Assembly (NCBI GenBank): GCA_964016885.1
Contig: OZ024751.1
Span: 38,564,001 to 38,628,000, forward strand
DNA length: 64,000 nucleotides
Source: Eledone cirrhosa
Lineage: Eukaryota
Direction of reading: 5' to 3'
The notes under the pieces were generated by a model. The model was not told the origin of the DNA. It saw only the letters and a program-made list of their open reading frames with translations, and made no database searches. Below are positions 59,558 through 61,930 of the stretch, in pieces. Position 1 is the stretch's first letter, and each line of letters opens with the position of its first letter. Made by a program: the position numbers and the translations under genes.

Positions 59558-59760
59558 AACGAAGGAAATGTGGTAAGGAACCAGGGGGACCATAACGCAC
59601 CAAAGTAATCAATACTTAGGGTAGTAGAGTGGGTAATAGGAACGAGTAGGACCCCGACGGCTGAGCTCAAGCCGTTTCGACGGCTAATTCTGGACTAAAT
59701 TTAGTCCAGAATTAGCCGTCGAAACGGCTTGAGCTCAGCCGTCGGGGTCCTACTCGTTCC
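59558..59760 (-). mobile_element. Family P copy 7, intact, with a perfect 128-bp palindrome
   Basis: 59636-59699 is the exact reverse complement of 59700-59763; tail at left; (TA)n flanks. Confidence 0.95.
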
Positions 59761-61930
59761 TATATATATATATATATATACAGTAATAATAATAATATTT
59801 ATCCTTATATATGTTTTATATACAATTATAAATATGGAGGGTAGTACTAAGTACTAGCCAGTTACCAGTAGAAGAAAAGGCTCAATGCAAATTATCAAGT
59901 GTATTACAGAGCCGAGATACAAAATATAAAAAATCAAATCTTAGTTTAATACATTTATGGAATCATCAGAGCATAGAGACTGTTTAAACTGGTAATTAAA
60001 ATCCTAGTCTTCAGAACATTTAGGTAGATACATTACTATTGTCAGTGTCATAGACATCATATAGAAAATCGGGAGTTACAAAAGAATGTTATGTTTCAGA
60101 AAACACATTACAAGGAGCAATGGTGTAAAGTGAAATATTAAGCATATTATGTATAAAAAGATGTTGTTTAAGGTAATACATGTGCAAAAGGTACAAGCAA
60201 AAAAAAGATGTAAGATAAGATATATAAAAGATATCATAGCATTGGAAATCAGGTAATGTTAAGGGTATATAATGCAAGATAGGGTACACAATTAATAAAG
60301 GGTATACAATTAATAAAGGCATGTATGAGGTAACAGTGGTATAAGAGTTTAACTCTCTCTCTATATATATATATGTATATATATACATATATGTTGATAA
60401 TAATTATGGACGTGGTTTCAAAGTTCCATTATATTTACACAGGGGTGACGTTCGTTTCACAACATGGCATCTTGGAAGAGTGTCATGTACCATGTATTTA
60501 CGTCAACCCATGTCTTGCGAAGGAAGGTTTTAGACGGAAATTATTTACAAACATATTTAGAGACTCGCCCTATTCAAAGAACCGAATTTGTAATATCCCT
60601 TCTTAAGCTTAATCTACCTGAGAACGAATTTAAGCGTAGACATAGCTGTGAAATGCTTAACTATTTACTACTTGATTTCCCCAGCAAACTGGGTTTTTTT
60701 TGTTCGGACAATTAGAAAATTCATTATCTTAACCATCAGTGGTCCATCCAACTGCACAATTGAAACTGCCTCCAGTATGTCATTATAGTTCGTTCCCTCT
60801 ACCTTGGAAGCCAATGCTCGCCAGACAGTGAGACAAAAGAAATTAAGTGTTAACTAAATAACATATAAAGAAATTTATAGCAGAAATTTTTAATTATTTC
60901 TCTCTTATTTGTACATATATTTGTTCGTATTTGTTCAGAGTTTTCTACATATAGATTACTTTGAAGTTGGAAAAAAACATTCCCTGGTACATTGTCATCT
61001 AAATTAATTGGAAAATTGAAATATTTATTAATTTTTCTAATAACTAAATAACTAAATTGAAAACACATTAACCTCAGAAGTCACGTGGCAGAAGGCAACA
61101 TACAAAACTGTGCAAGGATTTTCTTAAGTTTATAAACAAAATATCGGAAGGAAGGAAATGATGTTAGTGTTAGTTCACAACCTATTTAAGAGACAAGTAT
61201 TAAAGTCCAAAATTAAAATAACAGCTACAGCAACAACAAAAATAATTTAAATATATACATGTTTTTTTCTGCCAGACGCCATCTTGCTGAAATTACTCCA
61301 CACGACGAAACAGCAGTATAAATAAACAGATTTTTAATTAAAATGAAAATTAATAAAACGAAGAAAAACAAGAAGAAAAACAAAACATTAAAATAACTAT
61401 ACAATCAGTTTGTTTTTAATCCAAATACCATGTTTATAAATAACCTTATTCATTAATTACACATATCCACGTTCCGAATACAAGTCGTGTCAACACCTTA
61501 AATCATGAACGAGAATAACAACGCCCATATTAAACATTCCTGTTAAATATATATTCTACAGCCTGGTTATATTTATTAAAGGACAGAGTAGTACGAGTAA
61601 ATAAGGTTTCATTATGGCGCAATGTTCAAAATGTATTGAAATCTTAATAAATGTTTAAAAACCTTTAAATAAATCTATTAACGTGACTTTTGACACATAA
61701 ACAAGATTTTCTAGTGGGAAGTTCACACAATAACATCTATAATATTCGAAGTCCTAGAAGTCGGCTAACGTACATTGTTTATCTACAATAATGGTGTTTT
61801 TTGTTGTTTATGTCGACGATAATTAGTCCCAAATCAAGTCTTACAGAGCAGACGCATAATTAAATGGAATCTAACCATGAACAATTAGTAGTTATACTGG
61901 AACAATATTTCGTTAAGAGTACTTATGTCT

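Follow-up and report, generated by a model that had tools for sequence, protein, structure and literature searches.

A (TA)n-flanked palindromic repeat built on the 3' half of a hammerhead resembles an inverted-repeat insertion product of PLEs

We note that the 206-bp unit at positions 59558-59763 of the window (the whole stretch of 64,000 nucleotides analysed), here called Family P, lies between (TA)n runs at both ends and, by the features tested, likely acts like the inverted-repeat insertion product already known for Penelope-like elements (PLEs), and not as a ribozyme, an autonomous PLE, a retrozyme or a MITE. We regard a PLE origin of the family overall as very likely, and it seems to us reasonably probable, more specifically, that a parent RNA without the palindrome has repeatedly given rise to Family P as a minimal insertion product, with synthesis stopping at the tip of helix II. 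As the basic layout is already in print the surprise is limited; what is new is the precision and the abundance of the mirroring at the tip of a ribozyme hairpin.

The initial annotation had described the whole interval as a perfect palindrome, and this holds for 59636-59763 (64-bp arms, 100% mirror identity, zero spacer, 128 bp in total) but not for 59558-59635, a non-palindromic 78-bp tail of unique sequence (Table 1). The palindrome has a folding energy of -145.6 kcal/mol (z = -19), and 0 of 200 shuffles were equally stable. Read on the minus strand, the order is inverted arm, hairpin, C-GAAA, a 6-bp helix III, GUC and GGGGU, with 98 nt from the cut site to (TA)n. The GAAA box occupies 59678-59675, helix III pairs 59675-59670 with 59662-59657 around a 7-nt loop, the C17 of GUC lies at 59656 and GGGGU at 59655-59651; the same motifs are mirrored on the plus strand at 59721-59748, and the 42-nt hairpin at the centre has a perfect 21-bp stem. 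The proposal that each arm holds half of a hammerhead, here the 3' half of type I, is borne out by the motifs, with GAAA, helix III and the NUH cut site all present, and by RNAfold, which forms both helices. C-GAAA with a 6-bp Watson-Crick helix and UH occurred in 5 of 20,000 dinucleotide shuffles of the arm, for a descriptor composed after the sequence had been seen.

Missing from the element is the CUGAnGA box: neither its exact form nor U3 variants occur on either strand at any of the seven Family P loci, and the mirror arm stands in its place, as had been proposed. Because the box is absent the copies are ribozyme-dead; judged from sequence, they cannot be working ribozymes, and self-cleavage of the palindrome is predicted to be nil. 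Rfam gave no match at the gathering score in the whole window, and its 18 sub-threshold matches around the element are generic hairpins, with no hammerhead family among them. Compared with PLE type I hammerheads as described in PMC4209133, Family P has in common C-GAAA, helix III, GUC and a short helix I strand, lacks the CUGAnGA box and the 5' strand of helix I, and has a helix III of 6 bp with a 7-nt loop as against the 1-2 bp usual in animal PLE hammerheads; the same source reports closely spaced motif pairs on opposite strands in Schistosoma. The tail plus arm (59558-59698) has a register of about 46 codons that is stop-free on both strands, probably by chance; the ORF of the anole element is described as beginning inside its hammerhead (PMC11167929).

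Table 1. Parts of the Family P unit at 59558-59763, its other copies, and further head-to-head units in the window
Feature	Position	Strand	Basis	Remarks
(TA)n target microsatellite, tail side	59460..59557	.	sequence	
78-bp tail	59558..59635	-	sequence	3' end of the unit in the hammerhead sense
Tail-side arm	59636..59699	-		helix II 3' strand, GAAA, helix III, GUC, helix I 3' strand
Type I hammerhead 3' half	59651..59678	-	sequence, fold	
Central perfect hairpin	59679..59720	.		helix II position; mirror point between 59699 and 59700
Inverted arm	59700..59763	+		second half-hammerhead copy; stops 20 nt past GUC at fixed point
(TA)n target microsatellite, inverted-arm side	59764..59780	.	sequence	
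Family copy	5630..5824	+		identical arms, with 3 changes relative to 59558; centre lost between AATT repeats
Older-subfamily copy	24501..24713	-		both arms with subfamily segment after GUC; 5-nt centre spacer
Family copy	34626..34730	+		tail-side arm and part of tail deleted
Family copy	37025..37177	+		centre deleted between internal direct repeats
Family copy	41533..41698	+		most of inverted arm deleted
Diverged single-arm fragment	45143..45190 (approximate)	-		between TA runs
Head-to-head unit	11922-11954 mirrors 12395-12427		sequence	
Head-to-head unit	42597-42710 mirrors 43117-43230		sequence	
Head-to-head palindrome	43747-44026			one arm with a minimal hammerhead, the other with a decayed copy

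The window consists of AT-rich DNA of animal type with many microsatellites, and (TA)5+ runs account for 8% of its length. BLAST placed Family P at seven loci in it, so that the seven copies initially counted resolve into six with both ends and one arm fragment, and the local density is about 100 copies per Mb. In six of six copies the inverted arm stops at (TA)n-GGAA, the single fixed end that had been claimed for it; the tail ends at the same base in all six, both ends lie in TA runs (6/6), and the 78-nt tail is found on one side only (6/6, that of 34626 being partly deleted). The description of the family as perfect palindromes applies to 59558, the only complete perfect one among the six: in four copies internal stretches have been lost at short direct repeats, and the arms of 24501 show 5 differences and are separated by a spacer. 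The 24501 copy adjoins 24302-24493 and is seated in the TA end of a SINE-like repeat with 11 loci in the window; one common repeat of the window presumably resembles a cephalopod SINE.

This layout matches published PLE insertions, which leads us to the reading as a PLE insertion product. As described, such insertions often carry an inverted 5'-truncated copy and a 30-40 bp tail at one end, with a bias to microsatellites (PMC8557442), and head-to-head PLE repeats are abundant, with junction palindromes and a shorter inverted pLTR, and have been read as self-priming (PMC3846280). Family P has the same inverted 5'-truncated copy, junction palindrome, one-end tail and microsatellite target. As far as the accounts of EN+ PLE insertion units go (Penelope/Poseidon, Neptune, Adineta Pen2a and Pen3a; PMC3846280, PMC8557442), the likeness extends to the head-to-head 5' inverted copy with its junction palindrome, the shorter length of that copy, the tail at one end, the AT-rich simple target and a hammerhead near the 3' end, whereas Family P differs in having no ORF, no full pLTR and only the 3' half of a hammerhead, in a mirror point fixed at the helix II tip, in a tail of 78 nt as against 30-40, and in its local abundance of some 100 copies per Mb. 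For anole Poseidon it is reported that reverse transcription starts inside the RNA, 111-118 nt into the ORF and with the hammerhead cut at +26, that two such starts bound the tail, that both strands of AT-rich DNA are cut and extended, and that ribozyme cleavage is dispensable (PMC11167929). Set beside these starts, the 98 nt past GUC in Family P argue for PLE priming. The Anolis carolinensis element PAc and Family P both have a 3' end about 90-100 nt past the cut site, two fixed ends bounding the tail, an AT-rich target and an uncleaved RNA template, the last presumed for Family P; PAc, unlike Family P, is autonomous with a minimal active ribozyme, and products mirror-joined at helix II are not described for it in the available part of PMC11167929.

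Other known systems fit less well. An autonomous EN+ PLE is rejected on the 206-bp length of the unit, which has no RT/GIY-YIG ORF, and on the 0 tblastn matches at Family P. Non-LTR retrozymes, described as non-autonomous PLE derivatives (bioRxiv 10.64898/2026.07.22.740005), are likewise short, non-coding, hammerhead-related and likely PLE-mobilised, but in that account they form head-to-tail tandems in which every unit has its own complete ribozyme, whereas Family P is a dispersed head-to-head monomer without one. In the literature searched we found no account of Family P or of mirroring at helix II; Repbase and Dfam lay outside this search, and the family may be catalogued there.

The initial annotation's link to PLEs is upheld by this insertion architecture and also by the neighbourhood, where hammerheads, head-to-head units and an endonuclease remnant speak for the PLE reading. 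A type I hammerhead descriptor found four complete motifs in the window (5203 on the plus strand; 35596, 42947 and 43820 on the minus strand) as against 3 single matches in 100 local shuffles (mean 0.03); in unconstrained folds these motifs were no more stable than shuffles, so that the neighbouring hammerheads rest on the descriptor. Three of the four hammerhead units reach (TA)n at 73, about 39 and 273 nt past the cut site, and three other head-to-head units besides Family P are present (Table 1). With 152 PLE-type proteins, mostly endonuclease C-termini, tblastn gave 144 matches in the window, all at 11923-12159. The broken frame at 11956-12174, enclosed by the first of these units, had 156 homologues at E up to 0.001 in a profile-free search; Pfam scans of 17 of the 150 listed homologues gave sub-threshold GIY-YIG in 3 of 17 and an RT family in 0 of 17, and among five inspected, RT motifs, a CxC linker and a C..C..C.H end were recognised by eye in the two longest, which we take to mark a Neptune-like PLE. 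No names were attached to the 10 homologue clusters looked up, a word-indexed protein search with the endonuclease piece returned 0 of 7 candidates, and three window peptides had no Pfam match. Against the PLE reading stand the 78-nt tail where 30-40 are reported, the helix III larger than usual in animal PLEs, and the neighbouring PLE fragments themselves, which have no sequence in common with Family P within the window. The neighbours show that the genome makes such products, not that the parent of Family P is among them.

The neighbouring units are also of note in themselves. The unit at 11922-12492 (plus strand; short copy at 5433-5572, minus strand) is a 5'-truncated Neptune-like PLE with (TA)n at both ends, a 33-bp inverted tail piece, an endonuclease C-terminus with an internal stop, a tail of about 100 nt and a hammerhead-like motif with a U3 core variant. 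In the unit at 4871-5340 (plus strand), positions 5203-5267 form a complete type I hammerhead whose helix II region measures 43 nt; a tail of 73 nt leads from it to (TA)n, and shorter stubs of the tail alone lie at 4836-4869 and 43548-43592. At 42597-43230 (minus strand), 114-bp inverted ends enclose a complete hammerhead (42947-42870) with a 59-nt helix II region and a palindromic helix III, and no coding remnant was recognised. The palindrome at 43747-44026 has a palindromic helix III hexamer in its minimal hammerhead and has its mirror point at a perfect hairpin of 32 bp that lies upstream of the core; its right end is interrupted by a repeat at 44026-44562, with a second copy at 49617-50154. 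The unit at 35503-35700 (minus strand), a hammerhead with an 8-bp helix I and a tail of about 39 nt, lies between two (TA)n runs, and just upstream, at about 35880-35910 (minus strand), is what we take to be a decayed Poseidon-like hammerhead remnant followed by AATAAA. A minimal hammerhead-like core at 50538-50570 (plus strand) failed a stricter descriptor.

The mirror points bear on how often the palindrome was formed. That of 59558 lies between AAA and TTT with zero spacer, that of 41533 is shifted outward by one base on either side (one substitution), also with zero spacer, and the centre of 24501 has 5 unmirrored bases. Over 51-53 nt of eight arms (the deleted arms of 37025 and the 45143 fragment left out), there are 0 differences within 59558, 0 within 5630 and 3 between these two, while the arms of 24501 are 5 apart from each other and 6-11 from all other arms, with the subfamily segment in both. 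In terms of sequence, the sharing of subfamily variants by both arms and the differing mirror points favour repeated formation over one master. We dropped the notion that the both-arm variant of 5630 is private to that copy, since it makes up 10-13% of X1 depth; the variants are shared at the level of subfamilies, which points to repeated re-mirroring or conversion and not necessarily to a new event at each insertion, and a few homogenised masters also fit. A caution on the mirror points is that long palindromes tend to be unstable at their centres once inserted. Of the two possibilities initially left open, formation at each insertion or once in a master copy, it is the single master that is disfavoured.

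Public sequencing data confirm that the family is very abundant, with Family P in 25,249 of 12,467,656 raw RAD reads (X15) and in 19,289 of 16,285,364 contigs (X1); it was also found in 520 of 762,587 contigs of X4 and, in another organism, in at least 5 of 23,643,904 contigs of X5 (about 81% covered). X1 may derive from the organism of the window itself. Family P words occur in 12 of 17 listed sequencing runs, and the listed holders include no RNA runs, which is uninformative on expression. At least two sets of sequences depart from 59558 inside the hairpin (24 of 552 rows, with at most 30 letters visible past each break). The first interior, after 59700, was seen in five X4 contigs (agreement 0.88), in one X5 contig spanning tail and arm and in mixed X1 rows of 21 and 24 contigs; it is an imperfect hairpin with a 4-nt loop and bulges that closes on the same outer stem, past which it has A where the mirror requires T, a departure resting on one letter, the final visible one. 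The second interior, after 59686 or before 59713, occurs in 66 X1 contigs and in 464 and 977 X15 reads, though RAD reads may derive from few loci, and by eye is also an imperfect hairpin with a different inside; its unmatched part in X15 (median 71-80 letters) exceeds an immediate return to the mirror arm if the interior is about 35 nt, as it appears by eye. The second interior is found in palindromic copies as well, since in one X4 contig it stands at the inverted-arm position.

These two imperfect non-mirror hairpins are candidate parent forms, such as the parent model needs. Up to its loop, the first has a 3' strand identical to the tail-side arm of 59558, and 59558 and 41533 both mirror at the loop edge of one non-mirror form, so that the perfect 21-bp "helix II" was probably made by mirroring and not inherited from the parent; the initial view of the perfect hairpin as parental helix II is therefore not sustained. 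A CUGAnGA box or an ORF attached to the Family P tail was not found in the window loci, the visible read ends or the tblastn of the window. At 59568/59588, four X4 contigs run on into sequence other than TA, either beyond the tail end or within it (median 210 letters), and one X5 contig does likewise (39 letters); these continuations could be the downstream ORF side of the parent. Piled read ends of X15 at 59689, 59698-59701 and 59710 are at AATT sites and were attributed to library digestion, and no clear A-to-G excess was seen among the listed changes in reads.

We propose that a PLE RT/GIY-YIG protein would cut (TA)n and that cDNA would be primed on uncleaved parent RNA at the tail end. By analogy with anole Poseidon (PMC11167929), the tail end of 59558 may mark the first start of reverse transcription, 98 nt 3' of GUC, and the end of the inverted arm a second start or a microhomology join. 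The first cDNA would copy the tail, GUC, helix III, GAAA and the 3' strand of helix II, and synthesis would halt at the helix II tip. In the version we prefer, a second cDNA would then start from the other target strand, 20 nt 3' of GUC, and be joined to the first via self-complementary AT/TA bases; alternatively, the first cDNA might fold back and copy itself until it meets TA microhomology. Fold-back or template switching at helix II was the route initially proposed, and joining of two cDNAs by twin priming fits the zero-spacer centres and the fixed arm end at least equally. Microhomology deletion would afterwards remove parts of the palindrome's interior. More tentatively, we speculate that the helix II tip is a programmed stop-and-join point, where two cDNAs from opposite (TA)n strands meet, and that the fold contributes to integration structurally and not by cutting, and has given rise to, or turned into, a ribozyme-dead palindrome of very high copy number.

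The main rival holds that a PLE-derived palindrome was formed a few times and that the ribozyme-dead hairpin-plus-tail unit now spreads non-autonomously, being transcribed whole, its tail bound by PLE protein, and copied end to end. We judge this unlikely, although all six copies stop at or inside the same hairpin with identical ends, where ordinary 5' truncation should vary, and a palindromic master would explain this simply; the window holds no longer 5' extensions, the abundance in reads and contigs is very high, a single ancestral centre could underlie those of 59558 and 5630, and non-autonomous PLEs are on record (PMC8557442; bioRxiv 10.64898/2026.07.22.740005). Such spread would, however, need re-mirroring or conversion in every lineage to place subfamily-diagnostic changes on both arms, it leaves the differing mirror points and the two or more further hairpin interiors to be accounted for, and a 64-bp perfect RNA duplex would presumably be a hard template for reverse transcription. 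If mirroring is instead placed after insertion, one-armed PLE or retrozyme stubs would have gained the second arm by host fold-back repair or replication at a hairpin beside fragile (TA)n and been kept alike by gene conversion. Zero-spacer palindromes, the identity of arms within copies and the frequent microhomology deletions are in keeping with this; the inverted arm, however, ends at the same base in 6/6 copies and enters neither flanking DNA nor tail, and a one-armed undeleted copy is absent from the window, all of which makes it very improbable.

Outside the PLEs, Family P might be a TA-targeting non-autonomous DNA transposon (a MITE, a Mutator-like element such as MuTAnT, or a Helitron2/Replitron-type HUH element), its hammerhead likeness a by-product of nested hairpins. 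The ends are fixed, the unit is short and its hairpins strong, and each arm contains two copies of the 7-mer AGCCGTC, which would allow the helices to be nested repeats. MITE and Mutator-like transposons have terminal inverted repeats at both ends, whereas the two 30-bp ends of Family P match over 6 bp at best, with no terminal inverted repeat; this speaks against the MITE/Mutator-like class and accords with the initial expectation that DNA-transposon hallmarks would be lacking. Helitron2/Helentron elements have asymmetric subterminal inverted repeats and a short terminal hairpin, and neither these features nor Replitron-type ends, which are short terminal direct repeats (10.1101/2022.12.15.520654), were evident by eye in Family P copies. 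TA-targeting Mutator-like elements do exist, and MuTAnT, like Family P, is short and (TA)n-flanked, but as described it is a plant family (PMC4486113), and no transposase partner was seen for Family P. A target-site duplication is unreadable inside the (TA)n flanks. The palindrome is flush with one end only, the half-hammerhead motif is rare in shuffles (5 of 20,000), and neighbours of the same layout have complete hammerheads and a PLE endonuclease remnant, so that we consider a DNA transposon improbable. An assembly or library artefact from fold-back chimeras is scarcely credible and already largely refuted: perfect palindromes with zero spacer may arise as artefacts, none of the listed pieces covers the element from end to end, and X1 depth falls about four-fold at the palindrome centre, but six copies have diverged arms, distinct deletions and a common arm end, and the family is present in four runs from at least two organisms.

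How PLEs make inverted-repeat insertions, and what role the hammerhead plays, are questions posed as open in print (PMC8557442, PMC11167929, PMC3846280). A near-constant stop at one hairpin tip with two fixed outer ends makes Family P a clean data set for deciding between twin priming and fold-back, and the anole in vitro system makes that question testable. If the stop-and-join reading is true, there would be thousands of natural records of PLE inverted-repeat formation, and the hammerhead of PLEs would have a role without cleavage. For annotation, such palindromes are to be taken as retroelement stubs, not as MITEs, microRNA precursors or working ribozymes; if transcribed, those of Family P would yield long double-stranded RNA.

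Scans of viral collections (1 and 4 matches), metagenomes (0 and 1) and prokaryote genomes (1) gave chance matches, with no extension past the seed. Elsewhere in the window, a 160-codon frame at 55171-55653 (minus strand), which has no Pfam match, presumably resembles the C-terminal end of a non-LTR retrotransposon ORF, and 4512-4655 is a palindrome with arms of about 55 bp and a TA run at its centre.
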